NCBI GenBank assembly: GCA_031426555.1
Contig: JANPLN010000037.1
Coordinates: 1 to 23,765, forward strand
Length of the DNA stretch: 23,765 nucleotides
Reading direction: 5' to 3'
Source of the DNA: Bdellovibrionales bacterium
GTDB lineage: Bacteria > Bdellovibrionota > Bdellovibrionia > Bdellovibrionales > JAGQZY01
A program made the translations under genes and the position numbers. This document shows positions 3,988 to 23,219 of the stretch, piece by piece. Each line of letters begins with the position of its first letter. Within the stretch, counting starts at the first letter, position 1. Below the pieces are notes generated by a model. It saw only the letters and a program-made list of their open reading frames with translations. It was not told the origin of the DNA and did no database searches.

Positions 3988-6021
3988 CTAATTGATATTT
4001 AAAAGCTCGCGCGGGAAGTTTTTATACTCATCGCCATATTTCAGCTTTTTATAAATGATAAAATTACGCATCACCAGCTTTACATAGGCCTTGGTTTCCT
4101 CGTAGGGGATGTCTTCGATAAACATGATGTCGTCGTTTTGGTTTTCCACCGAGCGCTTGTGCCAGTTTCGCACAGCCGAGGACGAGGCATTGTACGAAGC
4201 CACGTACAAACTAAATTTGTTATCGAAGGATTTCATTTGTTTTTTAAGAAGTTGCGAGCCCAGCAGAATATTTTTGCTCTCGTCGTAAAGATCTTCGTAA
4301 TTTGTAAAAGGAACTTTGATTTCCCGAGCCACGCGGCGAGCCACTTCGGGTAGGAGTTGCAATAGTCCAAAGGCATCCATGGGGCTTCGCGCCTCTGGAT
4401 TGAACGACGATTCCTGGCGCATGATCGAATACACCAGCTCTTGCTCCACGCCCGTCTTATCAAAGGCATCTTTCATTTCGGTCACATAAACTTCGGGAAA
4501 AAGGATCCGCGGGATCTGCGAAAAAACTTCTTTTTGCAGGTTATAAGGCAATTGGTTGAAAACCGAAAAAATATACCGGTAGTCTTTGATCTTTGCATAA
4601 AGGGAGAAAAGACTGGAAACCTTTTGCGCGTCCATTGTTTTAAGTTTACCGGCATCGGGACTGTTCATGGCAAGTAAGCGTGTCGCAAGATCGATCTCGT
4701 CCACCTGTTGAAGAGCATCAAAGATCTTTTCGTCTTCCGATGGTAAAACAGTTTCCGGTTTAAAGTCGGGTACCACGTAGCTTTTTAAAGGCTTTTGCAA
4801 TTGGAAGTGGGAAATCAGTGTGTAGTAGCCAAACATATCTTCATCACAAATTTGCTGCCAGGTTTTCTGTGCAACCTCAGTTGCTCCCCTGCGATTTTCG
4901 GCTTCGGCACGCCAGTACAAATATTTAAATTTGCCAAACGGTGTGGTTTCAGCGTTCTCGATCATCGTGTTCAAATGCTTTTCAGCTTCGACGAATTTTT
5001 TTTCTTTAAAGTACGACCATGCGAGGGTCCATAATATTTTTTCACGGTCGCGCCACAGCGTAGATTTTTCGAGAAGCGCTTTTTCCAGTTCGCCCACAGA
5101 AAGCGAATGCAGCTTTTTTTCTTCGAACATTCGTGCGCGCAACCAATATATATCGTGCAGACTGATTTTGCCTTTTAAAACCTTTTCCGTAGCGTCGAGC
5201 ACGGGAAGGGCGGGTTCTGTCCCGCGCTCGGTCCAAAGGACGCGAGCGTAGTTGATCTGCGCTTCGAGGTACGATTGCATAAACGCTGGCGAGGAGAGCA
5301 TCTCGGGTTTTAAAAACTGCGCCCATTTTTTTGCGGCTTGGATATATTGATCTGTCTTAGAACCTTTCAGCAGGCGGTCGGTGAGGAAGGCCTCTTTGTA
5401 GGCGGTCCACTTTTCGTCGATGGTCACTTTGGGGTTATCAATGATTTTTTTAAGGTAGGACTTGGCCTTATCGAACTGGCGCACAGAGCGGTAGTCTTTT
5501 ACGATACGAAACTGATCCTTGATCGTGGGTTTTTCCATAAACCGCGGCGCAAGATTGTACAGAGCTGTTTTTAAAATAATTTTGTCTTCGTCCTTACTAT
5601 CAGGACTTGCGATTCCTTTTTGGTAAATTTGAATTTTATCGGGTGACGAAAAATAAGTAGAATTTTTTTCTACAAACAGAGCGCGCTCAAGATCGGTTTT
5701 TAAATTGTTGTAGTGCGTGAGTTGTTTTTCTTTTTCGAGCCACACCGGCACAGGTTTTGACCAGTCTGTGGTTTCGGTCACTACGCAGGTCTGAAGTGAG
5801 CGAACATAAGCAGCGTCTTTTAAAATAAATTTTTCGCGGTTGGTGAGTGAAGTGTAAAGCTCACAGGCCTTTTCGGGCTCGGTGCTCGTTAGAAGTTTCG
5901 CTTTGGTATAATCAACGAGATCCGCAGTTTCCGGAGCAAGTTTAGGATGTGACGAGCAGGAGCAAAAAAGAACGACTCCTGCGGTTAAAAAACGAGAATA
6001 GAAAGTCGAGAAAAAAGACAT
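3988..6021 (-). CDS. slt: Soluble lytic transglycosylase (Slt70-like), lipoprotein with TPR-like helical N-region
   Basis: C-terminal SLT motifs IMRQESSF (catalytic Glu), GLLQL, SYNA and IPYEETKAYV. Lipobox-like LFCSC. Confidence 0.9.
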   Translation of the reverse strand: MSFFSTFYSRFLTAGVVLFCSCSSHPKLAPETADLVDYTKAKLLTSTEPEKACELYTSLTNREKFILKDAAYVRSLQTCVVTETTDWSKPVPVWLEKEKQLTHYNNLKTDLERALFVEKNSTYFSSPDKIQIYQKGIASPDSKDEDKIILKTALYNLAPRFMEKPTIKDQFRIVKDYRSVRQFDKAKSYLKKIIDNPKVTIDEKWTAYKEAFLTDRLLKGSKTDQYIQAAKKWAQFLKPEMLSSPAFMQSYLEAQINYARVLWTERGTEPALPVLDATEKVLKGKISLHDIYWLRARMFEEKKLHSLSVGELEKALLEKSTLWRDREKILWTLAWSYFKEKKFVEAEKHLNTMIENAETTPFGKFKYLYWRAEAENRRGATEVAQKTWQQICDEDMFGYYTLISHFQLQKPLKSYVVPDFKPETVLPSEDEKIFDALQQVDEIDLATRLLAMNSPDAGKLKTMDAQKVSSLFSLYAKIKDYRYIFSVFNQLPYNLQKEVFSQIPRILFPEVYVTEMKDAFDKTGVEQELVYSIMRQESSFNPEARSPMDAFGLLQLLPEVARRVAREIKVPFTNYEDLYDESKNILLGSQLLKKQMKSFDNKFSLYVASYNASSSAVRNWHKRSVENQNDDIMFIEDIPYEETKAYVKLVMRNFIIYKKLKYGDEYKNFPRELLNIN

Positions 6022-6041
6022 AAACCAAGTCTATGTCTTTT
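6011..6041 (-). terminator. Intrinsic terminator of htpX overlapping the slt start codon
   Basis: Minus strand reads AAAAGACATAGAC-TTG-GTTTATGTCTTTTTT immediately at the htpX stop: a hairpin followed by a U-run. Confidence 0.55.
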
Positions 6042-6960
6042 ACTGGGCCTGTTGCAACTTTTGAATACGAACTTCCAGTGCGGGATGGGTGCTAAACAGC
6101 GACAGAAGTCCCGTGCCACGAATGTGAGAGATCTTGGCCACGGCATAGGTGTCGTTGGGCTCTTCGTTCTCCGTGGCGCGCAAATGTCGTCCGCTCTGGG
6201 CCTGAAGCGCCTGAAGCGCCGAAATCATTTTTCCCTTGCCGGCAAAATTGGCTCCACCCTTGTCTGCACGAAATTCACGCATGCGAGAAAAGTAACAAAC
6301 CACGATGTTGCCTAGGAGGCCAAAGACAGTTTGGAACAACATGATCAACATAAACTCAGACCCACTGGAGCCCCGACGGTTGTCGTCGTTGGATGATCCA
6401 GCGATGACCGACGCCAAAATGCGCGAGAAGAAAATCACAAAAGAGTTCACCACGCCTTGAATCAAAGTAAGAGCCACCATGTCGCCATTGGCAATGTGCG
6501 CCACTTCGTGGGCAAGGACGCCTTCCACTTGATCGCGGTTCATCGTATTTAACAAACCTGTTGAAACAGCAACCAGCGAATTGGATTTGGACGGGCCCGT
6601 GGCAAAAGCATTCACGTCAGCGCTTTCGTAAATTCCCACTTCAGGCATGCCAGGAAGGTGTGCCGCGCGGGCCAGGCGATGAACGGTTTCTAAAATCTCA
6701 CGCTCTTGACCTTGAGAGGATTGAGGATCAATCATTTTTAAGCCCATGGATCTTTTCGCCATGAATTTAGAAATCATTAAAGAGATAAACGCTCCACCTG
6801 TTCCCCACACGCAGCTCATAAGAAGGAGCGGCATGTAGCCCGTCGACGGTGTTGCCGATCCGAAAACAAAATAACTGATAATAGAAGCGATCACAGACAC
6901 TGTGAGCATCACGAAAATATTTACCAACCCAAAGAAAAACGCTCCACGCATAAAACCCAT
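6040..6960 (-). CDS. htpX: Membrane zinc metalloprotease HtpX (M48)
   Basis: Motifs NAFATG, HEVAH zinc site, FSRMREFRAD and THP. Start moved to ATG 6960, which has a GGAGG SD. Confidence 0.95.
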   Translation of the reverse strand: MGFMRGAFFFGLVNIFVMLTVSVIASIISYFVFGSATPSTGYMPLLLMSCVWGTGGAFISLMISKFMAKRSMGLKMIDPQSSQGQEREILETVHRLARAAHLPGMPEVGIYESADVNAFATGPSKSNSLVAVSTGLLNTMNRDQVEGVLAHEVAHIANGDMVALTLIQGVVNSFVIFFSRILASVIAGSSNDDNRRGSSGSEFMLIMLFQTVFGLLGNIVVCYFSRMREFRADKGGANFAGKGKMISALQALQAQSGRHLRATENEEPNDTYAVAKISHIRGTGLLSLFSTHPALEVRIQKLQQAQ

Positions 6961-7002
6961 AGAACCTCCGTTAAGAGATATTATGAGCATTGCCGGGATA
7001 AC

Positions 7003-7202
7003 AGCAAGGTACGGACACACTTTTGGGACTCATTGCATAAATTTTTATCTAAATTAGGGAAGGCTTCTTTTTAAGACACGTCCATCCTTGGACTCGCTCG
7101 CAGCTCGAAACATCCTGTTTGCGAGAGGTCTTAAAAAGAAGCCTTCCCTAATTTAGATAAAAATTTATGCAATGAGTCCCAAAAGTGTGTCCTTACCTTG
7201 CT
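7003..7202. repeat. 200-bp near-perfect palindrome (REPIN/MITE-like)
   Basis: Arms 7003-7077 and 7128-7202 are reverse complements at 74/75 positions. The 50-bp spacer contains two small hairpins, and the arms start with AGCAAGGTA(C/A)GG. Confidence 0.95.
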
Positions 7203-7212
7203 TCTTCTTTGT

Positions 7213-7278
7213 GGGCACGGAGCGAGCTATGCTCGCGAACGAGCACCGAAGGCGCCTTGCCCCTTGCCGTACCTTGCT
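7213..7278 (-). repeat. REP-like structured repeat, copy B
   Basis: Reverse complement AGCAAGGTACGGCAAGGGGCAAGGCGCCTTCGGTGCTCGTTCGCGAGCATAGCTCGCTCCGTGCCC aligns with 15377-15443. Confidence 0.85.
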
Positions 7279-9572
7279 TACGCTTTGACCTTTTCGGGGG
7301 TCTTTTTGCTTTTTGGGGTGGGGGTGTCGAACTGGGCCTCGACTTTTTCCTCGCCCGTTGGGTCTTTTATTACCACGAAGTGCACGTGGCCGCCTTGTTT
7401 GAGGCGACCAAAAAGCAATTCGTCGGTGAGGAGGTCTTTGAGTTGTTTCTGAATGGTGCGGGCCATGGGGCGGGCGCCATACAGAGGATCGAAGCCTTTT
7501 TTCGCCAGCAATGCGTTCACCTCGGGAGCGATGTCCATGGTGACGGTTTTTTCTTTCAGCTGCTCTTTGAGTTCAAAGAGGAATTTCTCCACAACTTGTT
7601 TTATGATCTCTTCGTTGAGGCCGGCAAAATAAACGATGTCGTCCAAACGATTTAAAAATTCAGGAGCGAAGTGTTGCTTAATTGATTCTACAGAAACACT
7701 CACCTGCGTCTTTGCCGACAAGCCAATTTGCGACTTCAAAGCATCTTTGGCGCCGCAGTTGGTGGTCATTACAATGATGGCATTGCTAAAATGCGCCACT
7801 TGGCCGTGGGGATCTGTCAGCGTGCCGTTATCAAAAACCTGCAACAGTACATTGATCAGATCGGGATGGGCTTTTTCGATCTCGTCGAGTAGCAAAACGC
7901 AATAGGGTGTTTTTTGCACCGACGTTGTGAGGAGACCGCCCTCTTCGAAACCCACGTAGCCAGGAGGCGAGCCGATCAACCGGGCCACGGCATGTTTTTC
8001 CATGTATTCGCTCATATCAAAACGAATTAGTGGAATGCCTAAGTGATGGGCCAGCTGATTGCAGATTTCGGTTTTACCAACCCCCGTTGGACCGGCAAAT
8101 AAAAACGAACCGATGGGTTTGTTCTTTCGACCCAGGCCGACGCGATTGTTTTTAAGCGCATTCACCAAACTTTTGATGGCGTTGTCTTGCCCAAAGATTA
8201 ACGACTTCAAACGCAGTTCTAAGTTGCGCAGCTTTTCGTTTTCATCCGACGACACGGATTGCAGAGGAATCTGCGCCATTTTGGAAACCACTTTTTCCAC
8301 TACCGCGGTGCTAATGGACGGTTCTATATCCACATTGTGGGCTTTTTGCAGTCGCAAATAAGCACCGGCTTCGTCCATAATATCGATGGCTTTGTCGGGA
8401 AGTTTTCGGTCGTAAAGATGCTTGCTGGAAAGTTTAACGATATGTTGGAGTACATCGTCACTGTAGCTGACCTGGTGATAATCCTCGTAATTTTTTTTGA
8501 GGCCCTTTAAAATTTCAACCGTTTGCTCAAGTGTTGGCTCGTGAATATCAATGGTTTGAAAACGACGGGAGAGGGCGCGGTCTTTATCGAAGTGCTGGCG
8601 GAATTCTTTGTACGTGGTGGCACCAATGCAGCGAACTTTTCCTTTAGCCAAGTAAGGCTTTAATAAATTGGCTGCGTCTAATGAGTGTCCACTGGTGGAG
8701 CCTGCGCCCACAATAGAGTGGATCTCGTCGATAAATAAAATGGCAGATGGAATCTTTTCGAGTTCATTGAGCAAGGCCTTGATGCGCTCTTCAAAATCGC
8801 CGCGGTACTTAGAGCCCGCAAGCAGAGAGCCCATATCGAGATTGTAAACAACGGCATTCTCGAGCGGCGATGGCACCTTTTTTTGCACAATCTTTAAGGC
8901 AAGGCCATCGGCGATGGCCGTTTTTCCCACGCCGGGTTCGCCGAGCAGGAGGGGGTTGTTTTTAGTTCGTCGACAGAGCGTTTGCATCACTCGTTCCATA
9001 ACATCTTCGCGGCCCACCAATGGGTCGATTTTTCCGTTCTCGGCGAGAACATTTAAATTTACAGCAAACTGTTCCAAAGCGGATTTAGTTTTTGCCGCGG
9101 CGGTGTCGGAGGGCGCGTCGCCCGTTTTGATATTTATAGTTAAAGCTTTTCTGAGATTATGAGTTACGTGACGAATAATATTTACTTGCTCGAGTTCGTA
9201 CTTCTTCAAAAAAAACACAGCATGCGACTGTTCTTCCTCAAACATGGCAATCAAAAGGTTTTCCACTTGCACTTGTGTTTTGCCGGCGCTTTGCACCTGA
9301 ATGATACAGCGTTGAAGCAGGCGATGGGACGCCAGCGTGAATTCAGGATTTTTTTTCGGTTTGTCCACGTGGGTGAGCTTGAGATTCATAAACTCCACAA
9401 GATCGTTGGTGAGCTTTTCTTGCGGGACCTGAAAGTGCTGCAACACCTGCTGAATCACCGGCTGTTGCATCAACGACAACATCAAATGTTCCAAGGTCAC
9501 AAATTCGTTTTTGTACTGGTGACAGTAATGGATCGCCTGATTTAAAACGTGCTCAACTTGTGGGCTTAGCAT
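7278..9572 (-). CDS. clpA: ATP-dependent Clp protease ATP-binding subunit ClpA
   Basis: Two AAA+ modules ([15 protein letters not shown] and [16 protein letters not shown]), IGL loop, no long middle domain, directly downstream of clpS. Confidence 0.95.
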
Positions 9573-9573
9573 G

Positions 9574-9912
9574 TTAGGACTCCTTTTCTATGACCGATTG
9601 CAGAGGGTGCTTGTTCTGTTGGGCGTACGTGTTCACAATGTGCATCTTGGTTTCGGCGGTTTCAAAATTAAAAACCCCGGCAATTCCTCGACCGTCTTTA
9701 TGCACTTGTAACATAATGTTTTCGGCCTCTTCCTTGGTCTTTTGAAAAAACTTTTGCAAAATATGCGTCACAAAATCCATGGGTGTGTAATCGTCGTTGA
9801 GCAAAAGGACTTTGTAGAGAGCCGGCTCTTGAGTTTTGACCCTGTCTAAAACCTGCGTCGATCCTTGATTGTTGTCTTGAGTGTCGTCTTGATTATTAAC
9901 TTGTTGGCTCAT
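9574..9912 (-). CDS. clpS: N-degron adaptor ClpS
   Basis: Motifs YKVLLLNDDYTPMDFV, MLQVHKDG and AETK...HPL. The likely start is ATG 9912 (MSQQ); the upstream extension in the ORF track is not ClpS-like. Confidence 0.95.
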   Translation of the reverse strand: MSQQVNNQDDTQDNNQGSTQVLDRVKTQEPALYKVLLLNDDYTPMDFVTHILQKFFQKTKEEAENIMLQVHKDGRGIAGVFNFETAETKMHIVNTYAQQNKHPLQSVIEKES

Positions 9913-10152
9913 TCCTAGAATGTAACAAATTTTTGCTTCATTGTATCGAAAATAGACATTTCGTTGGTTCATTGGCGCGGCTAGACCATTGGCGGGACGC
10001 CCAAAAAAGAGAACGAGACGAAAAAAATGCCGAGCGAGACACAAAATAAAGTTAATTTTATTTTTATCTCATTGAAGTTGTTTTGATTTTTGCTAACCTG
10101 ATCGTGCATAAAAACAAAAAAAGAACCAAGACGGTTTTTAAACGGAGGACGT

Positions 10153-10776
10153 ATGTTAAAAAATAATAAAGGTTTCTCGCTCATCGAGCTGATGGTGGTT
10201 GTGGCCATTATCGGAATTCTAGCGAGCTTTGCAATTCCGCAGTACGCGAGCTTTCAATCGCGCGCACGCCAAAAAGAAGGGCAGACATTGCTAGGGTCGT
10301 ATTTCACTGCAATGAAATCAACAGAAGCGGATGGCGGCGTACTTTGGGCCAATTTCGTGACTGCGGGTTTTGCCCCAACTGGTCAATTACACTATCGCAT
10401 CGATACTGCAGGACAAGCCATTCCTCTTGGGGGTGCTTATCCGGCAAACGGAGCTCCTTTTCTTGCAGCTTGTATCACTACGGGGCCTAACGCTCCTGCA
10501 CCGCCTACGTGCAACGCTGCTACTTCATCGTGGACAGGTACAGCCGTTGTTGCTGCCGGTCCGTATGTAGCACAGTGGCAAGAAGTTGCTCCCGTGGGTT
10601 CGTTTTATCCTGCAGCCGGAGTTGCAGCTTGCGCTCGGTTGTCGGCTACAGCAGTTCTTGCGACTTTCAGAGCTTGTGCCGGCGCTGTCATTCGCAGTAA
10701 CGGTGCCGCGGATATCGACACTTGGTCCATTACTGAGACCAAAACGTTGCTCAACGTAAACAGTGGTGTGAACTAA
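10153..10776 (+). CDS. pilA: Type IVa major pilin
   Basis: Class III signal [26 protein letters not shown] with Glu+5, GGAGG SD, and an Ala/Gly/Pro-rich variable region with 4 Cys. Confidence 0.88.
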
Positions 10777-10785
10777 TATTTTTTT

Positions 10786-10820
10786 GGACGGCGCTATTTA
10801 TTTAGCGTCGTCTTAATCTT
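10786..10820 (+). terminator. Hairpin/terminator after the pilin gene
   Basis: GACGGCGCTA-TTTATT-TAGCGTCGTC stem (one G-U pair) followed by a T-rich tract. Confidence 0.6.
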
Positions 10821-10823
10821 TCT

Positions 10824-11558
10824 ATGATGATTATCAAATCTTATTTTTCATTAAGCCTCCTGCTCTTAGTGTGTGTTCTGCTGCAATGGAACTCAGTTTC
10901 CGTGCAGGCGAAGCCTCAGTTTCTGCGACCTCCTGAAGCCATAAAATATTTCACCCTCGGCTACCACGATATGTTCGCCAGTGTTTTGTGGATACGGGCT
11001 TTACAAAACTTTGATTACTGTGAGGGTGGCAAATACTCAGATGCCGACTACGTTCCGCCGTTAGCAGACGCAAAAAACAAACTCCAGGGTGTGTTGCTGC
11101 GTAAACTGAAGGCATCTAAGTGCGACAAGGGCTGGGTCTACAGCATGCTGAACGTGCTCACAGAAATTCAACCAAAGTTCAAAATTGCCTACGACGTTGG
11201 AGCGCCTTTTTTAAGTGTCGCGGTGGATGACCGCGAGGGCGCACGTTTGATGTTTGAAAAAGGTCTTAAACAATACCCGGAAGATTGGCGTTTATCCTAC
11301 GCAGCTGGCTACCACTACCTTTGGGAGATGCAGGATCCTGATCGATCGGTGGCGCTCCTGTTCCAATCTTTGAAAAGTGGAGGGCCAGCCTACCTACCGT
11401 CACTTATTGCCGGCCTGTATACAGAATTAGGGCAGGCCCAGTATGCCTATGAAATTTTGGTCGACGCCCTTAAAAAGGGTCCACCAAAAGAAGTGGAAGA
11501 GCGGATCAAAAATCGACTCAAAGAAGTAGAAGCCGTGCTTAAGGCGAATAAAAAATAG
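10824..11558 (+). CDS. Pilin-associated membrane-anchored/secreted TPR-like protein
   Basis: N-terminal hydrophobic segment and TPR-like helices (ARLMFEKGLKQYPEDWRLSYAAGYHY). Located directly after the pilin gene. Confidence 0.6.
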   Translation: MMIIKSYFSLSLLLLVCVLLQWNSVSVQAKPQFLRPPEAIKYFTLGYHDMFASVLWIRALQNFDYCEGGKYSDADYVPPLADAKNKLQGVLLRKLKASKCDKGWVYSMLNVLTEIQPKFKIAYDVGAPFLSVAVDDREGARLMFEKGLKQYPEDWRLSYAAGYHYLWEMQDPDRSVALLFQSLKSGGPAYLPSLIAGLYTELGQAQYAYEILVDALKKGPPKEVEERIKNRLKEVEAVLKANKK

Positions 11559-11613
11559 AGCTCTCAATAATTCACCTTGACCATTTTGCGTTTAGACTCA
11601 ATTTTAGCGAGTC

Positions 11614-12720
11614 ATGTCACAAGATTATTATCAAACCTTAGGTGTAGATCGAAACTCGTCTGCGGACGAGATTAAAAAGGCTTATCGCAAGCTGGCCATG
11701 AAATATCATCCGGACAAAAACCCCGGGGATAAGGCCGCTGAAGATAAATTTAAAGAGGCGTCTGAAGCCTACAGTGTCCTCAGCGATGCTGATAAAAAAA
11801 GCAGATACGATCGCTTTGGCCATGCTGGCGTTCAAGGACCTGGCGGCGGTGGATATAATCAGGGCTTCGATAATGTGGAAGATATATTCTCGAGCTTTTC
11901 CGATATTTTTGGCGATTTTTTTGGCGGCAACATGGGCGGCGCTCGGCGCGGCGGCGGATCGCGTCAACGGCGCGGGGCCGATTTGCGTTATATGCTCGAA
12001 GTGAACCTGGCTGAGGTGATTTCGGGCGCCGAAAAGGAATTGGAATTTGATTCCGAAAAATCCTGCGGGGTTTGCTCGGGAAATGGCTCCGAACCCGGCA
12101 AGCAGCCGGAAGTTTGTCCCACTTGCGGTGGCACTGGTCAGGTTGTGAGCTCCCAGGGATTTTTCTCGGTGGCCACCTCGTGTCCGGCGTGCCGAGGCAA
12201 CGGAAAACTCATCCGCCATCCTTGCAAGTCTTGCAAAGGCAAAGGGCGCACCATGGAGGATCGCAAAATTCGCGTCACCATTCCCAAGGGCGTGGCCACG
12301 GGGACTCGCTTGCGAATTTCTGGTGAAGGTGAGGGCGGCTACATGGGCGGTCCTTCCGGCGATCTCTATGTTGAAATTCGCGTGCGCGATGACGCTCGTT
12401 ATGAGCGCCAGGGCGACGATCTGTATGGAGCCCTCGAAATTTCCTATGTGCAGGCTCTTTTAGGTGCTGAGGTCGAAGTCGACACCATGGACGGTCGCAA
12501 AAAAATCACTGTTCCTCCGGGCACGTCCCAGGGGCAACTCTTAAAAATGAAGGGTTTAGGCATCCCGCACATTCGCGGTGGAAACCGCGGCGATCTTTGT
12601 TGGGGCATTAAGATTTTAATACCCAAAAAGCTCAGCAAGGATGAGGAGAAGCTTTTGCGCGAGATCGCCAAGAGTCGCGATGAGGCTGTGCTCGATAAGA
12701 AGGGCTTTTTTGGGGCCTAA
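11614..12720 (+). CDS. dnaJ: Molecular chaperone DnaJ
   Basis: J domain with HPD, a G/F-rich region and four CxxCxGxG repeats. Confidence 0.97.
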
Positions 12721-12732
12721 CGGTTAGTGGAC

Positions 12733-12760
12733 CTTGACGGCAGCAATTGGGCCACCATAT
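12733..12760 (+). promoter_or_regulatory. Sigma-32 (RpoH)-like heat-shock promoter of dnaK
   Basis: CTTGAC-N14-CACCATAT versus the consensus CTTGAA-N13-17-CCCCATNT, followed by an AAGGAG SD. Confidence 0.6.
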
Positions 12761-12790
12761 TTAGTTTGTAAATCATGAAGGAGACATCAA

Positions 12791-14713
12791 ATGGGTAAAA
12801 TTATCGGAATCGACTTAGGAACAACTAACTCCTGCGTATCTGTAATGGAGGGCGGCGAAGCCAAAGTTCTGGTGAACGAAGAGGGAGCGCGAACGACGCC
12901 TTCAATTCTTGCGTTCAAAGACGGTGACCGTCTTGTTGGGCAAATTGCAAAGCGCCAGGCTGTCACCAATCCTACAAATACTATTTATTCGGCAAAACGT
13001 TTTATCGGCCGTCGTTTTCAGGAAGTTCAAGAAGAGATCAAAAAAGTTCCTTACACGGTTGTGCAAAAAGGCAATGATATTGGTTTTCAGGTGATGGAAA
13101 AGGGTCAGCAGAAAACTGTTTCTGCCGAAGAAGTGGCAGCAACGGTTCTCGCAAAACTTAAAAAAGTAGCCGAAGACTATTTGGGTCAAGAAGTGACCGA
13201 AGCAGTTGTTACGGTTCCTGCGTACTTTAACGATGCGCAACGACAAGCGACCAAAGATGCGGGCCGCATTGCCGGCCTCGATGTAAAGCGCATTATCAAC
13301 GAGCCCACAGCGGCCGCTTTGGCCTACGGTTTTGATAAAAAACAAGAGCAAAAAATCGTCGTTTACGATTTGGGTGGCGGAACGTTTGATGTTTCGGTTC
13401 TCGAAGTGGGCGACAGTATTGTGGAAGTTAAATCCACCAACGGCGATACGCACTTGGGTGGCGATAACTTTGATGAAGTGATTTTGGATTGGATGATCGA
13501 AGAATTTAAAAAAGACCAAGGCGTCGATTTGAAAAACGACAAAATGGCTCTTCAGCGCCTCAAAGAGGGCGCCGAAAAAGCGAAGATCGAACTCAGTTCT
13601 TCCATGGAAACCGAAATCAATCTTCCGTTTATTACGGCAGATGCAACGGGTCCAAAACATTTAATGATGAAAATTTCGCGCGCTAAGTTTGATCAGCTAA
13701 CAGACAAATTGGTGCAGAGAACTCTTGAGCCATGCAAAAAAGCCATGGCAGATTCTGGTTGGACAACCAACGATATCGACGAAGTGATTTTGGTTGGTGG
13801 ATCAACGCGGATTCCGGCTGTGCAAAAAGCAGTAAAGGATTTCTTTGGCAAAGAACCAAACCGTTCAGTGAACCCTGATGAAGTTGTGGCCATGGGTGCT
13901 GCGATTCAAGGTGGAGTTCTGGCCGGCGACGTGAAAGATGTTCTTCTTTTAGATGTAACGCCTCTCTCTCTCGGTTTAGAAACTTTGGGCGGCGTGATGA
14001 CTCGTTTGATCGAGCGCAATACGACAATTCCTGTAAAGAGATCGCAGGTGTTCTCGACAGCCTCCGACAATCAGACCAGTGTTGAAGTGCATGTGCTCCA
14101 AGGCGAACGTGAAATGGCCTCGGGCAACAAATCACTGGGACGTTTTGAACTTGTGGGAATGCCACCGGCACCCCGCGGAGTTCCGCAAATCGAAGTGACT
14201 TTTGATATCGATGCTAACGGGATTTTGAATGTGTCTGCAAAAGATATGGGCACAGGTAAAGAGCAGGCGATCCAAATCAAAGCGCGCTCTGGTTTGACTG
14301 AAGAAGAAATCCAAAACATGGTGAAAGATGCCGAGATGAATGCCGAGGCGGATAAGCAGAAAAAAGAAGTGATCACTTCCAAAAACGAACTCGACAATAT
14401 GATTTATCAAACGGAGAAGTTGATCAAAGACAACGAAGCCAAGCTTCCTGCGGATGATGTGAAGGCCGCGCAAACTGAACTGGAAGAATCTAAAAAGTTA
14501 GTTTCTAAAGGAACAGATGCACCGTTAAACGATTTAAAAGCCCAGTTTGAAAAGCTGCAAACCATTACACAAAAAATGAGCGCAGAACTTTACAAGCAGG
14601 CACCGCCTCCCGGCGCAGCAGGAGCTGATGCCACACAAGCCTCAGATGCCCCCGGCGACGCCCCCAAAGGCGGCGACGACGTCATCGACGCCGACTACAA
14701 AGACGTCAACTAA
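12791..14713 (+). CDS. dnaK: Molecular chaperone DnaK (Hsp70)
   Basis: Motifs [18 protein letters not shown] and [13 protein letters not shown], with C-terminal [10 protein letters not shown]. Confidence 0.99.
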
Positions 14714-14732
14714 AAGGTACCAAGTACCTTTT
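14712..14732. repeat. Minimal REP-like palindrome
   Basis: AAAAGGTAC-CAA-GTACCTTTT, with perfect 9-bp arms overlapping the dnaK TAA. It has the same terminal motif as the other repeats. Confidence 0.75.
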
Positions 14733-14752
14733 CCGGCAACGTATTCGAATTG

Positions 14753-14785
14753 AGGATGAATAGGGATCTATTCATCCTTTTTTTT
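14753..14785 (+). terminator. Intrinsic terminator of dnaK
   Basis: AGGATGAATAG-GGAT-CTATTCATCCT, an 11-bp perfect stem followed by a run of T. Confidence 0.9.
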
Positions 14786-14804
14786 ATGTGGGTGACCTCG
14801 AGGA

Positions 14805-15401
14805 TTGCAATACTCTCGAATATGCCTCTGTTTAGAAGTTCTTCTTGTTTTAACAAACGAATACGGCTGCAAAATTTTACAGTTAGTTTTAATGTCAAAT
14901 CACTATCATCTGGTTATTCATACGCCTCAAAAAAATCTGAGTACATGTATGCTTTATTTCCATCGGGAGGTTGCCAAACGCGCAAATTTTGAGTCCGAAC
15001 GGATCAATCACTTTTTTGGCGGGAGATACAAATGGTGTGTGATCTCACAAGAGAACCATTTTTTTAATACCGTTAAATATGTTTTTCGAAATCCGGTGGA
15101 GGCGGGAATCTGCTTTAAAGTTGAGGATTACGCCTACTCTTCTTTAAAATATAGACACGCGCTTTTTCAATTGTCAGATTTCTTCTACGACCAAACAAAA
15201 ACCCTCGAGGTCGACTTAGCTTGGCTAAATCATGGATTTCATTCGCCGCAAAAAGAAGCAATTAAAGTGGCATTGAAAAAGCGGTACTTCAAAATTCCCA
15301 AGGATCAAAATCGAGAGACCGTGATCCTCGAGCCATCTCCGATTATTAGAAAAGATTATAACGCTTTGCCGCCGGTAAAGGTACTTGCAAGGGGACTCTA
15401 G
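14805..15401 (+). mobile_element. REP-associated tyrosine transposase (RAYT-like, Y1/HUH), probably 5'-truncated
   Basis: VLMSNHYHLV (HUH), HFFGGRY, KYVFRNPVEAG (catalytic Tyr) and YAYSS motifs. An in-frame TGA lies at 14793 and no N-terminal YHV-type strand is seen. Flanked by AAGGTAC repeats. Confidence 0.85.
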
Positions 15402-15452
15402 CGCCTACGGCGCTCGTTCACGAGCGAAGCTCGTTCCGGTCCCGTACCTTTT
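15377..15452 (+). repeat. REP-like structured repeat, copy A
   Basis: Terminal IR AAAGGTAC/GTACCTTT. A GGGAC/GTCCC stem encloses the hairpins GCGCC-TAC-GGCGC and ACGAGC-GAA-GCTCGT. Confidence 0.85.
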
Positions 15453-16053
15453 AGAAGTCGTAGGCGGCGCCGATGCTGAGGCTGCTGAAGGATTTGCTGA
15501 GCTCGAGGCCGAGTTCCGCAACAGCATGACATACTTTGTGATCGGGGTGAGTCCACTCGGTTCCGAGGGCCAAGCGCGACGAAAAGAACGTGTCGTCTTT
15601 ATTGGAATTCATCGCGATGGGAAGTCCTAGGTAAGGAACAATGCGCCCGTATTTGGTCTCGATGCCCTTACTGATAAAAGGCATGGCGGTAATGCTGGTT
15701 TGTGAGTACGCATCCGTGTCGATGTAGCTAATTCCGCCGCGTACACCGATGGCTGGTTGTTTTTCGTAATCGGGAATGGGAACCCATTTTAAAAAGGCGC
15801 CGAGCATGACATCCAATTCGCCGGTACCGATTTCGAAGTCAGTTTGCAGTTCGTCATTGAGTCCATACGTAAGGCGGGCATTAAGGTTGAGTCCGTCGAT
15901 GGGATTGTCAAAAATACTTTCTAAATAAGGCAATACCTGAAAGGTTTCTGGTTGGAGCAGATCACCACTGGTCATTAGACTTTGGTAAGCACTTGCGCTG
16001 AAGGAACTACATAAAATAAGGACAACTATCAATTTTTTCATAAACTTATTCAT
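15451..16053 (-). CDS. Probable outer-membrane beta-barrel protein
   Basis: Signal peptide MKKLIVVLILCSSFSASA, alternating beta-strand pattern and C-terminal AYDF. Start at 16053 (GGGAG SD) or 16041. Confidence 0.65.
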   Translation of the reverse strand: MNKFMKKLIVVLILCSSFSASAYQSLMTSGDLLQPETFQVLPYLESIFDNPIDGLNLNARLTYGLNDELQTDFEIGTGELDVMLGAFLKWVPIPDYEKQPAIGVRGGISYIDTDAYSQTSITAMPFISKGIETKYGRIVPYLGLPIAMNSNKDDTFFSSRLALGTEWTHPDHKVCHAVAELGLELSKSFSSLSIGAAYDF

Positions 16054-16125
16054 AACCACTCTCCCTGACTCGACCATTGTAGTGGGACGAGTTGCAAAAA
16101 TAAAGTCTATTCTCTGAATCCGTCT

Positions 16126-16152
16126 TAATTTGCCCCTCAATGAAACCGATAG
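16126..16152 (+). promoter_or_regulatory. Sigma-28 (FliA)-like promoter
   Basis: TAAT-N15-ACCGATAG versus the consensus TAAA-N15-GCCGATAA. The ATG follows 6 nt later. Confidence 0.5.
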
Positions 16153-19985: not shown

Positions 19986-21971
19986 CTAGGAAATATGTTC
20001 GGCCAAAGCCGCAAGCAGACGAGAGGAATTGATCGGCTTCGTGAGATAATCGTGACAGCCGCTGGCGATGCTGCGTTCGCGATCTTCCTTCATGGCGTTG
20101 GCGGTCAAGGCAATGATCGGTTTGTTGTAGCCAGCAGCCCGCAAGGTTTTGGTCGCTGTGTAACCGTCCATGATCGGCATTTGGATATCCATAAGAATCA
20201 AATCAAAATCGTCTTTTAACGCTTTCTCAACACCCATGGCGCCGTTGGCCGCACTGTCTACGTTAACGCCGGCCTTGGTGAGGTAAAATCGCAATAAAAT
20301 TTGATTCTCTTCGCTGTCATCTACCACCAAAATATGTTTGCCGCGAAGATTCTCCACCGATCCATTCGTCAGAGTCTTTTCAGTTTTCGTCAGTTGATTC
20401 TTTGCGATATTTGTCTCGCTGATTGTCGCTACAAAAGCCGATCCTTGATTGAGGGTGGTGGTTTCTAAGATCACATCGCCTTCCAGGATTTGCGCCAGCC
20501 GTTTTGAAAGCACTAAGCCAAGTCCGGTGCCTCCATACTTGCGCGTGGTGGACTGGTCGGCCTGCGAAAAAAGTGTAAACAACTTCTTTCTTTGCTCTTG
20601 ATCTAAACCAATGCCGGTGTCAGTGACACGAAACTGCCAAGTGTTGTTATGAAACGAGCAGGTCACTGTGATTTCGCCTTGGTGGGTGAAGCGGAGAGCG
20701 TTGCTGATCAGATTCATCAAAATTTGTTGCAGGCGGACTCGATCGGAAAAAATAGTGAGAGGTGCTGCGGGATCGATAAGAAATCGCATTGTATTACCAC
20801 GCTCCTTAGCTTGCAGTTGAAACAGAATCTGCAGCTCGTCGATCAATTCTTGCAGCGGGAAAGTCGAGCTATCCACTTCCAGATGTCCAGACTCAACTTT
20901 AGAAATATCGAGAATGTCGTTGATGATACGACTCAAATTCTTCCCGGTACGCTCGATGACCTCCAGGTAATTTGTGCGATCTGCGGCACTCATCTCTGGG
21001 TCCTTCAGAGCCTCGGCGAATCCTAAGATAACTCCTAAGGGTGTGCGGATTTCGTGGCTCATATTGGCAAGAAATAGCGACTTGAGTTGGTTTGCGCTTT
21101 CAGCCTCTTTCCGTTCGCCAATATTTTTTTTGAGATCCTCGATCATGTTGTTTACCGAGCGCGCGAGCTGTCCCAGTTCGTCATTCGAGCGAACCGTTGC
21201 GGGTTGCGAGAAATTGCCCTGGCCCACAGCGTTTGTTGTTTGCATGAGTTCTTTCAGCGCGACGCTCAGGTTTTTTCCAAAACGAAAGGTCAAATACAAG
21301 CCCGTGCTTTCGATGGTGAGAACCGTCAATATCAGGATCCACATTAATACACTCTCAAGCCAGCGCGAACCAGCACCGAGGGATTCAGAAAAAGCATTCT
21401 CCAGCTTGCTTACTTCGGTATTAATTTCCGAAACCCGGCTCAGGCTTTTTCGCAAGCGTTCGCGATCGAAACTTCCATTTTGAATTTCTTGATGAATATT
21501 ATCTGACACCCTGATCAACTCATCCATCAAAGCATCTGCGCCTGTCCAGGCCACAATGGCATCGCTAATGTAACTGATACGATGAAAGCGGCGAAGTAGA
21601 TGAATCATGCCGTCAATGTCGCTTGGGTGGCTCCCTCCCTGGATAAATCCTTTTTTTACAGTTTCGTAGTCGAATGTGGGTTTCATCAGTTCGAGGCGCG
21701 AAAGACGATCCCCGTGGGGGACCTCGAGGTGTTTATAAAACTCTTTGGAATATTGCTCATCTTGATAAATTGCATACAAATACAAAGATTAAATCGCATT
21801 TTTTTGCGATTTTGACCAAACTCCCTCGGCGTTCACGAAAGCGCGTACGGCGGAAAGGGTGTTCATAGCAAAAAGCAGAGTGAAGAGTTCCAGCGCGATA
21901 AGGATGGCCATTAGTCCGACCACTGCATACAATTTTTTCGAAACTGAAAGATCTCGCCACAATGTCTTCAT
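19986..21971 (-). pseudogene. Hybrid sensor histidine kinase (TM-sensor-TM-HAMP-HisKA-HATPase-REC) interrupted by an in-frame TAA at 21789-21791
   Basis: ORFs 21789..21971 and 19986..21785 share one frame: ...EGVWSKSQKNAI*SLYLYAIY... Motifs SHEIRTPL (H-box), NLISNA, DTGIG, GGTGLGL and receiver DIQMP. Confidence 0.8.
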
Positions 21972-22040
21972 AGATATATCCCTAACTGGTTAAGATATCC
22001 CGAACCAGAATACAGCTGAAGTGGAGATTTCTTGACACAA

Positions 22041-23219
22041 CTAGTGGGACCCTCCGGAGTCCTTACAAATCCAATCTTCAAGCTCTTCGCGTTTTTGCAT
22101 TGTATCTTTGTAACCCAGATCGACTAACGGTTTTGTAAAACTTGGATGAAAAAGCAAATAGCTCGATAGGTCAGCGGTGTCTTGCCGAGAGCCTAAGCCA
22201 TCCATTAAAAACTGCAGCACCCTTGGAAAGCCCTGTTGCGAACAACTTTCGGCAACTTTTGCGATGTCCTGCGAGGGTCGAATGAGCTGGTAATCGAGGG
22301 CTGAGTAGTCCGAACGTTTCGTTTGAATGGATCGATGCACGCTTTGGATGATTTCGTTCACCAGCTCCAAGCGTTCCAGATCCAAATCAATGTTGTCGAA
22401 AAATAGGGCATTCAGCATGGAGCCCGCAACTTTTGCCACGCCGGGTTCTGATAAAAAAACAGTGGGGTCGGCTGTAGGTTGATCGTCAGGTGGATCGTCA
22501 TTTATGGGTTGGTATCGCACACCCACCATTAAGATTTTTTGTGCCCCTTGATGGATGACAGACGACGACGGTGCCGTGTTGCGAAACCCTCCGTCGGCGA
22601 AGTATTGATTTTTTATCTTCGTGAGAGGAAACAGCATAGGGATCGAACACGAGGCGAGAATATGCGAAGCGCCAATGGTCTCGTGCACGGAGTGCCTGTT
22701 GGAACGCTTCCATGAGGGACTATTGCCCTGAACAAAAGAGACAGTCTTTGACGTGTTAAAACAATAGGCCGTACAGGATAACGACTGGATAATGTTTTGC
22801 TCAATGTTTTCTTGAATCTGCTGAAAATGGATTTTTTTATTGAGCAAAGAAATTAAAGGGGTGGCGTTTAGGAGATACTGAGCCAACTTCTTCTGAAACA
22901 ACGACCCAAAACTCAAATCGCGGATCCATTTCGCGCTATTTTTGCTAAGGCTCAGTAGATCCGTGCGGTATATTTGTTCGGGAGTGATCTCTTGCCAAAT
23001 TTTTGCCAGCTGTTCTCCAGAAAATTCCAAGTCGGTGGCCTGGGAGGCGCTAAAAGCGGCATTAATGGCGCCAGCGCTGGTGCCTGACCAGATTTTAAAG
23101 GGATTTTTGTCGCCCAGAAGACTTCGTTTTTTAAGAATTTGGCCAAGGGCCATCAGCACTCCGGCCTGATAACTTCCCCGTGCTCCGCCACCGTGCAGAT
23201 TGATTCCTATTGTTTTCAT
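22041..23219 (-). CDS. Patatin-like phospholipase
   Basis: Motifs GGGARG, GTSAG (nucleophile) and DGG. The likely start is ATG 23219 (MKTIGINL). Confidence 0.9.
   Translation of the reverse strand: MKTIGINLHGGGARGSYQAGVLMALGQILKKRSLLGDKNPFKIWSGTSAGAINAAFSASQATDLEFSGEQLAKIWQEITPEQIYRTDLLSLSKNSAKWIRDLSFGSLFQKKLAQYLLNATPLISLLNKKIHFQQIQENIEQNIIQSLSCTAYCFNTSKTVSFVQGNSPSWKRSNRHSVHETIGASHILASCSIPMLFPLTKIKNQYFADGGFRNTAPSSSVIHQGAQKILMVGVRYQPINDDPPDDQPTADPTVFLSEPGVAKVAGSMLNALFFDNIDLDLERLELVNEIIQSVHRSIQTKRSDYSALDYQLIRPSQDIAKVAESCSQQGFPRVLQFLMDGLGSRQDTADLSSYLLFHPSFTKPLVDLGYKDTMQKREELEDWICKDSGGSH

Follow-up and report, generated by a model that had tools for sequence, protein, structure and literature searches.

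A decaying TIRtron-like transposase locus beside dnaK in a Bdellovibrionales bacterium and related families of terminal inverted repeats in the Bdellovibrionota

Introduction

TIRtrons are tyrosine transposase genes flanked by terminal inverted repeats (TIRs) that are unrelated to the GTAG-type repetitive extragenic palindromic (REP) sequences, and their enzymes are called TIR-associated tyrosine transposases (TIRYTs). The sections of PMC3733652 (Di Nocera et al. 2013) used here describe TIRtrons and TIR families as coexisting in a limited number of genomes and give a GGGGWSAS motif for some TIRYTs, not all. In the parts of PMC6006769 and PMC5581495 drawn on here, Quentin et al. (2018) tentatively equate TnpA-Y1 subclass 2.1 with TIRYT, and this subclass corresponds to Bertels group 1 (Bertels et al. 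2017) of the REP-associated tyrosine transposases (RAYTs), the group with the highest duplication rate among RAYT groups 1 to 5. TIR-associated tyrosine transposases are part of the largest RAYT group, and the two papers that we found to name them leave their function open. Here we analyze a transposase locus at positions 14712 to 15452 of a 23,765-nt stretch of DNA from a Bdellovibrionales bacterium (the window), which is the whole of contig C37 (JANPLN010000037.1) in a 3.14-Mb, 72-contig assembly (GCA_031426555.1, genome G000). An earlier note, made from the letters of the window, had read this locus as a REP/RAYT system with a new terminal signature.

We think it probable, with good confidence, that the locus is a decaying TIRtron, that is, a class-2 HUH transposase gene broken by a 101-nt deletion inside its TIR pair, whose TIR family is dispersed at gene ends and was likely spread by intact enzymes. 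The comparison set comprises five congeners (G001 to G005, same genus as G000) within a wider scan of 41 genomes; the assemblies are drafts. The G000 gene set consists of our own calls (2,912 genes, 89% coding), which missed the tnpA remnant.

Results

The transposase gene at the dnaK site is a broken copy inside one TIR pair

The element lies between two host genes and is made up as follows.

12791..14713, plus strand: dnaK, the left host gene; its stop codon (14711-14713) is the left junction of the element
14712..14741, plus strand: left TIR, family A; a 21-bp palindromic head (14712-14732) and a short inner extension, the same in G001 and G002
14752..14779, no strand assigned: small hairpin inside the element, separating the left TIR from the gene; congeners differ in its sequence
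14822..15401, plus strand: tnpA-Y1 (TIRYT-like) pseudogene; ancestral ATG at 14822, listed open reading frame (ORF) from a TTG at 14805
15369..15452, minus strand: right TIR, family A, interrupted by a cassette; inner part to 15387, outer part 15444-15452
15388..15443, plus strand: 56-nt two-hairpin branched cassette (D) in the right-TIR loop; absent in G001
15451..16140, minus strand: convergent host gene with no Pfam match; its stop codon (15451-15453) is the right junction of the element

A minimal palindrome at 14712-14732 and a multi-hairpin element at 15377-15452 had been reported to bracket the transposase, and both are where they were said to be. The left 21-bp head overlaps the dnaK stop codon, the outer end of the right TIR overlaps the stop codon of the convergent gene, and an A-run or a stop codon precedes both heads. 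In intact orthologues, the right TIR codes for the last residues of the protein, and the G001 right end reads as the reverse complement of the left 21-mer. Contigs of runs X2 and X3, which belong to a study other than the probable source and probably represent related strains, contain a joint that skips exactly the 56 nt of D as well as a piece containing D (depth of ~2 to 3, 30 nt on the short side). The "70-bp branched element" at 15377-15452 consists of the right TIR and a 56-nt cassette within its loop, and the flanks in the window are one TIR pair around a class-2 TnpA-Y1 gene, which is the TIRtron/TIRYT arrangement.

The 198-amino-acid (aa) ORF matches Pfam Y1_Tnp (30.5 bits against a cut-off of 23), has the motifs NHYH and YVFRNP, and retains the HUH histidines (14901-14909) and the presumed catalytic tyrosine (15078-15080). 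The Y1/HUH transposase of the earlier note is thus a class-2 enzyme by sequence, but its ORF is a 5'-deleted remnant that lacks the N-terminus of the 225-aa homologues. DNA alignment with G001 and G002, which carry an intact orthologue in the same position, flanked by dnaK and the convergent gene, places a loss of 101 nt after ~14826. Because the deletion shifts the frame, the start codon at 14822 is out of frame. The lost segment holds the first beta-strand of the modelled core (E14-20) and the invariant R19. We rejected a simple frameshift with the N-terminus in another frame, since homologue residues 1 to 44 have no tblastn match upstream and the DNA alignment is that of a deletion. A Logan contig of the probable source run is identical, deletion included, and an assembly artefact is unlikely; the sole run that spans the deletion may be the source sample.

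The ratio of nonsynonymous to synonymous substitutions (dN/dS) between the window copy and its G001 orthologue is 0.08 over 185 codons, which is consistent with a gene that was probably functional until recently and suggests that the loss of function is probably recent. Neither gene nor TIRs are found at the dnaK site in G004 and G005, and in G003 this site is split by a contig break, with a family-C element at the right junction. The earlier note suggested looking for a full-length paralogue, and there is one: an intact 213-aa protein with its own TIRs on contig C44 of G000, 39% identical to the window protein. No tnpB adjoins the window tnpA, and a comparison of the protein with phages gave 1 weak match. 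Named homologues come from Bdellovibrio, Pseudobdellovibrio and Oligoflexia.

TIR pairs flank most of the homologous genes across the phylum

We fetched 110 homologous loci, 102 of them distinct and 98 with enough flanking sequence, and scored a TIR pair at a threshold of at least 28. TIR pairs are present in 87 of the 98, nearly all from Bdellovibrionota, compared with 0/82 shifted and 34/487 cross-locus controls. A same-orientation control gave 19/98 because TIR heads are palindromic, and therefore the shifted and cross-locus controls were used. A lack of such repeats around close homologues, or a motif no more frequent than chance in the genome, would have told against the earlier note; neither check refuted it. 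A profile search returned 448 representatives at E<=1e-30.

Among the 88 loci with an identifiable core (4 dropped and a few mis-picked), an A-run is followed in the consensus by GGT[A/G]C[C/G], approximately CC, and a T-run, and the most frequent cores are GGTACGCC and GGTGCCAG (21 loci each). Since GGT[A/G]C is the wider core, AAGGTAC is only one lineage variant; the proposed terminal signature differs from GTAG and CGTC as claimed but is not the general one. TIR ends lie within -1 to 6 nt of a stop codon in 74 of 176 cases, versus 75 of 3,520 inward control positions. By eye, one of the TIRs comes straight after a tRNA-like 3' end, and not after a stop codon, at loci of several Bdellovibrio-like genomes (L035, L042, L056, L072, L080, L084, L089, L110, L112 and L116).

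Family A is found in 12/41 genomes and family B, which flanks the C44 gene, in 11/41 (backwards controls, 0 to 1). A B-flanked tnpA is present in all 8 genomes with at least 10 family-B matches. Family A has 28 to 36 matches in G000 to G002 versus 0 and 2 in G004 and G005, where the gene is absent. Repeat abundance mostly follows the cognate gene. TIR type also clusters on a quick protein tree (44 changes versus 80 when shuffled), in which kin share labels and the types are not monophyletic.

The earlier note thought the system possibly undescribed for this lineage, and we found no account of these repeats in Bdellovibrio or Bdellovibrionota among the papers listed by our literature searches. 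"Bdellovibrio" is absent from the main text of PMC3733652, whose Figure 9 and supplements 4 and 5 could hold a related TIR, and neither "Bdellovibrio" nor "Bacteriovorax" has a match in two text supplements of PMC6006769.

Relation to described transposase classes

N60, H61, H63, Y120, N124 and P125 are invariant in 150 sequences. TnpA-Y1 class 2 (RAYT-like) is recognized by HUH and Y---NP motifs in a Y1_Tnp core, which are present here, and by an intact coding sequence, which the window copy does not have. A structure model of the intact orthologue (pLDDT of 91.9) best matches E. coli TnpA-REP 4ER8 (E of 1.8e-9) and then IS200/IS605 TnpAs, with the tail modelled as a strand and two short helices; 4ER8 is also the only sequence match in the PDB. 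The family falls below both the RAYT and the IS200 cut-offs of NCBIfam, and four full-length proteins score 51 to 67 bits against the cut-off of 80 for REP_Tyr_transpos (RAYT). We fetched 10 of 15 plasmid matches; 6 of them show TIR pairs, and in 4 GGGGWSAS occurs on each side. The nine full-length plasmid relatives score 80 to 115 bits against the family profile, and E. coli RayT scores 50. A quick tree, containing no curated 2.1 references, separates the family from 10 plasmid relatives with a support of 91 and long branches. Weak helix-turn-helix (HTH) matches occur in 2/8 outside relatives.

TIRtrons, in the sections of PMC3733652 used here, have TIRs that may overlap gene ends, be self-complementary, and form moderately abundant families of singles, dimers and clusters. 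The present system resembles them in having a gene within a TIR pair unrelated to GTAG REPs and a dispersed TIR family in the host. It differs in its core, which is GGT[A/G]C[C/G] and not GGGGWSAS (1/88 cores reads GGGGTCAG, and a few are intermediate, such as GGTGACAG), and in the high proportion of loci with TIRs within one phylum, compared with the coexistence in a limited number of genomes in that account.

As far as the parts of PMC6006769 used here go, likeness to subclass 2.1 extends to NH[YF]H (NH[YF]H / NHVH in that subclass), Y---NP (Y[IV]..NP), an SS motif after the core, the lack of GTAG REPs, a length of 210 to 225 aa here against a median of 238, and 1 to 5 divergent copies where the gene is present. 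In contrast to that subclass, no HTH or Bac_DnaA_C tail was detected in 39 members, and the usual W[EQ]/FQ position reads F.GG.Y in the Bdellovibrionota family.

With REPtrons and REPIN-RAYT systems, REPINs being inverted REP doublets (E. coli 4ER8; P. fluorescens REPINs; sections of PMC3116915 and PMC8266576), the family shares the HUH fold, low gene copy number, intergenic gene-end repeats, a flanking 16-mer that ranks with the commonest of the genome, inverted doublets whose complementary spacers vary, and singlets beside doublets. Unlike REPtrons, it has no 5' GT[AG]G foot, it has tens and not hundreds of copies, its proteins fall below the RAYT cut-off, and the gene sits inside one TIR pair. 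The IS200/IS605 TnpAs (IS608, ISDra2) have the same Y1 HUH fold but Y---Q in place of Y---NP; here there is no tnpB, the ends are inverted and not asymmetric subterminal hairpins, and there are no identical copies. The system would work like REPIN-RAYT, is a TIRtron by arrangement, and by sequence is an HTH-less relative, and at most a candidate member, of subclass 2.1.

Three TIR families are dispersed at gene ends in the host genome

AAGGTAC occurs 6 times in the window, versus 1.33 +/- 1.21 in shuffles (0/100 shuffles reach 6). Genome-wide, the bare 7-mer is not over-represented (258 seen, 230 expected under a Markov model), and raw counts of it are uninformative. The genome-wide count that the earlier note had called for is thus unremarkable for the motif itself but not for its arrangement: there are 45 AAGGTAC...GTACCTT pairs within 400 nt (45 permuted 7-mers of comparable frequency have a median of 2 and at most 10), and 137 of the 258 occurrences are intergenic, against a background of ~11% and a median of 12% for 60 permuted 7-mers.

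Three TIR families have AAGGTAC in common, and each flanks a different tnpA paralogue. Family A (the window gene) has 30 motif matches, 29 of them intergenic, and all matches of family B (41/41) and family C (12/12) are intergenic. Twenty of the 30 family-A matches lie within 8 nt after a same-strand stop codon, compared with 125 of 3,000 random intergenic positions. Family-A 16-mers head the 16-mer frequency list of G000 with 29 copies, tied with one simple tandem repeat; two such repeats, with 7-nt and 8-nt units, rank beside the TIR among the commonest 16-mers. A looser scan gave 139 clusters, 52 of them genic and mostly single loose matches. Of the 73 intergenic clusters with both neighbours known, 38 lie between convergent and 4 between divergent genes, where the background is 231 and 426 of 1,740 gaps.

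The palindrome at 7 kb belongs to another paralogue

The related elements reported ~8 kb away from the transposase were confirmed, and are the following.

7003..7202, no strand assigned: non-coding family-C TIR dimer with 75-nt arms that are 99% complementary
7075..7130, no strand assigned: E core, the conserved and asymmetric 56 nt at the centre of the 200-bp palindrome; G000 has 21 copies
7213..7277, minus strand: extra, branched outer family-C end; it follows the clpA stop codon (7278-7280) by 2 nt and holds a second D cassette (7213-7266)

All elements had been said to share AAGGTAC/GTACCTT ends; the motif is indeed shared, except that the right end of the 200-bp palindrome is a one-base variant of it. 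The family-C TIR flanks a different tnpA paralogue in G001 (at both ends) and G003 (at one end, the contig being cut), and this C-flanked paralogue was not found in the G000 assembly. On this sequence evidence, the 7-kb element belongs to a paralogue of the congeners and not to the window gene. The three architectures that the earlier note assigned to one system therefore come apart: the 21-mer represents the head of a TIR or a dimer that has collapsed, the 70-mer a TIR plus a cassette, and the 200-mer the family of another paralogue. The extra end at 7213-7277 is absent at the orthologous site in G001, G002 and G003.

The E core may be an independent element because many copies lack family-C TIRs; compared with plasmids by blastn, it gave no match. 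In the 19 copies with full flanks, the 40-nt arms have a median identity of 0.975 within a copy and 0.65 between copies, and the cores 0.86. G000 and G003 differ in the arms at the orthologous htpX-clpA site, and the differences are symmetrical. The orthologous positions of both window elements are occupied on contig C28 of G005 by other hairpin elements, which have long arms and different ends (L155, ~13690-13860; L132, ~21930-22080).

Orthologous sites gain, lose and exchange repeats

We compared with G000 40 stretches around family-A matches from three congeners (20/28 from G001, 8/8 from G003 and 12/36 from G002), and 29 of them map to a syntenic G000 site. At four sites (L195, L200, L210 and L214) a dimer in one genome corresponds to a bare 21-mer in the other. 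At two sites (L196 and L207) G001 has family A and G000 has family B, and at one of these two G003 holds A plus C (L219). Several family-A sites are empty or otherwise occupied in G000. In G000, a B singlet stands where G001 has its C-type tnpA, and a collapsed palindrome stands where G003 has a tnpA. The C-type tnpA proteins of G001 and G003 are identical at 160/183 residues (87%) and stand at different loci. The B-type tnpA is inverted between its TIRs in G002 (L013/L098) relative to G000 (L093, C44), G001 and G003, a comparison that has only 148 nt of upstream flank. In another genus (L017 and L107), the gene pair of the family-B tnpA site has B-type TIRs around a tnpA that is non-sister in a quick tree. 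No consistent target-site duplication was visible in the 29 syntenic comparisons, which were made without a formal test and with flanks 66 to 97% identical.

The D cassette recurs at one position in different TIRs

D folds as a stem with two hairpins and is present in all 6 genomes of the genus and in 0/35 others. Of 28 distinct copies, 18 lie exactly 2 to 3 nt behind GGT[A/G]C, in families A, B and C and one other. By eye, about 6 of the remaining copies sit within degenerate TIRs; 4 more are related hairpins with different surroundings. Inheritance accounts for some of the shared positions. At least three different TIR sequences carry D at the same register, which suggests that D may insert at the nick made by the enzyme of the TIR.

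Other features of the window and the genus

Positions 3988-14713 hold housekeeping genes (a lytic transglycosylase [SLT], an M48 peptidase, clpA-clpS, a type IV pilin-like gene and dnaJ-dnaK), and a DUF1552 gene is found at 302-1948. No Rfam family matched the window at E<=1.

Another short palindromic repeat, starting GTCATC(C/T)TGAGCG, is found at gene ends in the genus (L133 of G004, at the dnaK 3' end; L223 of G002; C60 of G000) and may resemble the CGTC-type repeats. A second, unrelated HUH/Y1-like family of ~160 aa has ~11 dispersed copies in G000, including C25:58365-58841 (L001), and 5 distant paralogues. Most copies are 75 to 84% identical and some are broken. The family scores under the cut-offs of the IS200 and RAYT models and lacks GGTAC TIRs; a conserved GGGGCAAAGC motif lies ~130 to 150 nt upstream, and several copies have a common 3' tail.

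Discussion

HUH enzymes recognize a hairpin of single-stranded DNA, cut close to a short guide and carry out strand transfer, and changing the guide of one enzyme to GTAC moved cleavage to GA and GT sites (both from the parts of PMC8266576 used here). By analogy with this result, a cut inside GGTAC is a reasonable prediction; the alternative predicted site may be the loop position of the D cassette. Judging from HUH and TnpA-REP biochemistry, the enzyme would bind its own TIR as a single-stranded hairpin, nick in or next to the GGT[A/G]C stem via a 5'-phosphotyrosine, and join the nicked end to another site, and insertions would survive mainly right behind stop codons. TIR-gene-TIR would then lose its interior to give a REPIN-like TIR dimer, the dimer would collapse to a 21-bp singlet, and families would overwrite each other through their common AAGGTAC. 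Since the window gene is dead, family A is probably static in G000 or is moved in trans by the intact 213-aa paralogue.

Several observations weigh against a decaying TIRtron of this kind or against the life cycle just outlined. TIR pairs are lacking in 11/98 homologous loci. Family-A repeats occur without a detected cognate gene in G007 (10 matches, no tnpA at E<=1e-20) and G003 (8 matches), and G002 has 28 family-C matches and no C-flanked tnpA among its 4 genes (in draft assemblies). Agreement between TIR type and the protein tree is only partial, family B requiring 9 changes, 5 of them forced by strong branches (quick tree). The plasmid outgroup was chosen by similarity to the query, and its higher scores arise partly by construction. 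No HTH Pfam match at E<=0.05 was found in the 39 members or in 7 further family proteins. Finally, the direction of change between dimer and singlet is unpolarised.

The repeats could instead form a classical REPtron with a domesticated RAYT and a new foot, GTAC for GTAG, in which the 21-bp palindrome is the unit and TIR pairs are REPIN-like doublets. In its favour, each genome has one or few copies of the gene, the copy at the dnaK site was retained vertically in three congeners, the repeats favour gene ends and convergent neighbours in the manner of REPs, both doublets and singlets occur as they do for REPINs, and the best structural match is TnpA-REP. We consider it unlikely, because GTAC is inside the stem and not 5' of it, GT[AG]G lies near only 9/148 TIR ends or cores, all four full-length proteins fall below the RAYT cut-off, one oriented pair brackets the gene, the family-C end is not self-palindromic, and the nearest outside relatives have GGGGWSAS-type TIRs. 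What stands of the REP/RAYT system in the earlier note is that dispersed intergenic repeats carry a signature other than GTAG or CGTC; the flanks form a pair of TIRs as in TIRYTs/TIRtrons. Since gene-end bias is known for REPs and doublet-derived singlets are known for REPINs, neither is new. The element type is known, though little studied, and the locus represents a new lineage of it and not a classical REP system.

An autonomous insertion sequence (IS)-like element moving as TIR-gene-TIR, with the repeats as its miniature inverted-repeat transposable elements (MITEs) and scars and no domestication, overlaps with the TIRtron, the main difference being the rate of movement. Related copies at different loci in close species, the empty dnaK sites of G004 and G005, the inverted B-type gene of G002, and the duplication rate of Bertels group 1 in the part of PMC5581495 used here are all in line with it. 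There are, however, no near-identical duplicates: the two G000 paralogues are 39% identical, and the searched relatives have 0 to 5 matches each. The protein is below the IS200 cut-off and lacks a Y---Q motif, no tnpB adjoins it, and the same site is occupied across species with flanks 80 to 92% identical, which makes this explanation quite improbable. The palindromes might also serve the host in regulation, as terminators or as sites for protein binding at the ends of genes, a transposase merely having inserted between them; the gene-end bias is strong, a hairpin with a T-run could terminate transcription, and some TIR pairs enclose terminator-like hairpins. This we regard as highly implausible, given that the motif varies between genera and between paralogues of one genome, each variant flanking its own gene, is missing from most related genomes (A in 12 and B in 11 of the 41), and is gained, lost or swapped at orthologous sites.

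Returning to the TIRtron, we offer a broader reading tentatively, as a possibility that we hold somewhat less probable than not: a phylum-wide HUH system whose paralogues have their own TIR families but one terminal joint, with ends that overwrite each other at stop codons, and D as a site-specific hyperparasite that marks the nick site. The hyperparasite part refers to a non-coding cassette limited to the genus that enters the TIR loop 2 to 3 nt behind GGT[A/G]C in at least three families.

The window copy itself is a pseudogene, and the value of the locus would lie in a phylum-wide TIRYT-type system and a TIR-targeting cassette. The family bears on how a single-strand HUH enzyme uses inverted ends. 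It offers many natural enzyme-TIR pairs, including some in complete genomes of cultured Bdellovibrio, and paralogues of one genome with different TIRs suit specificity swaps. The recurring insertion point of D predicts the cut site of the enzyme. For the host, the 3' ends of genes such as dnaK and clpA are rewritten by these repeats.

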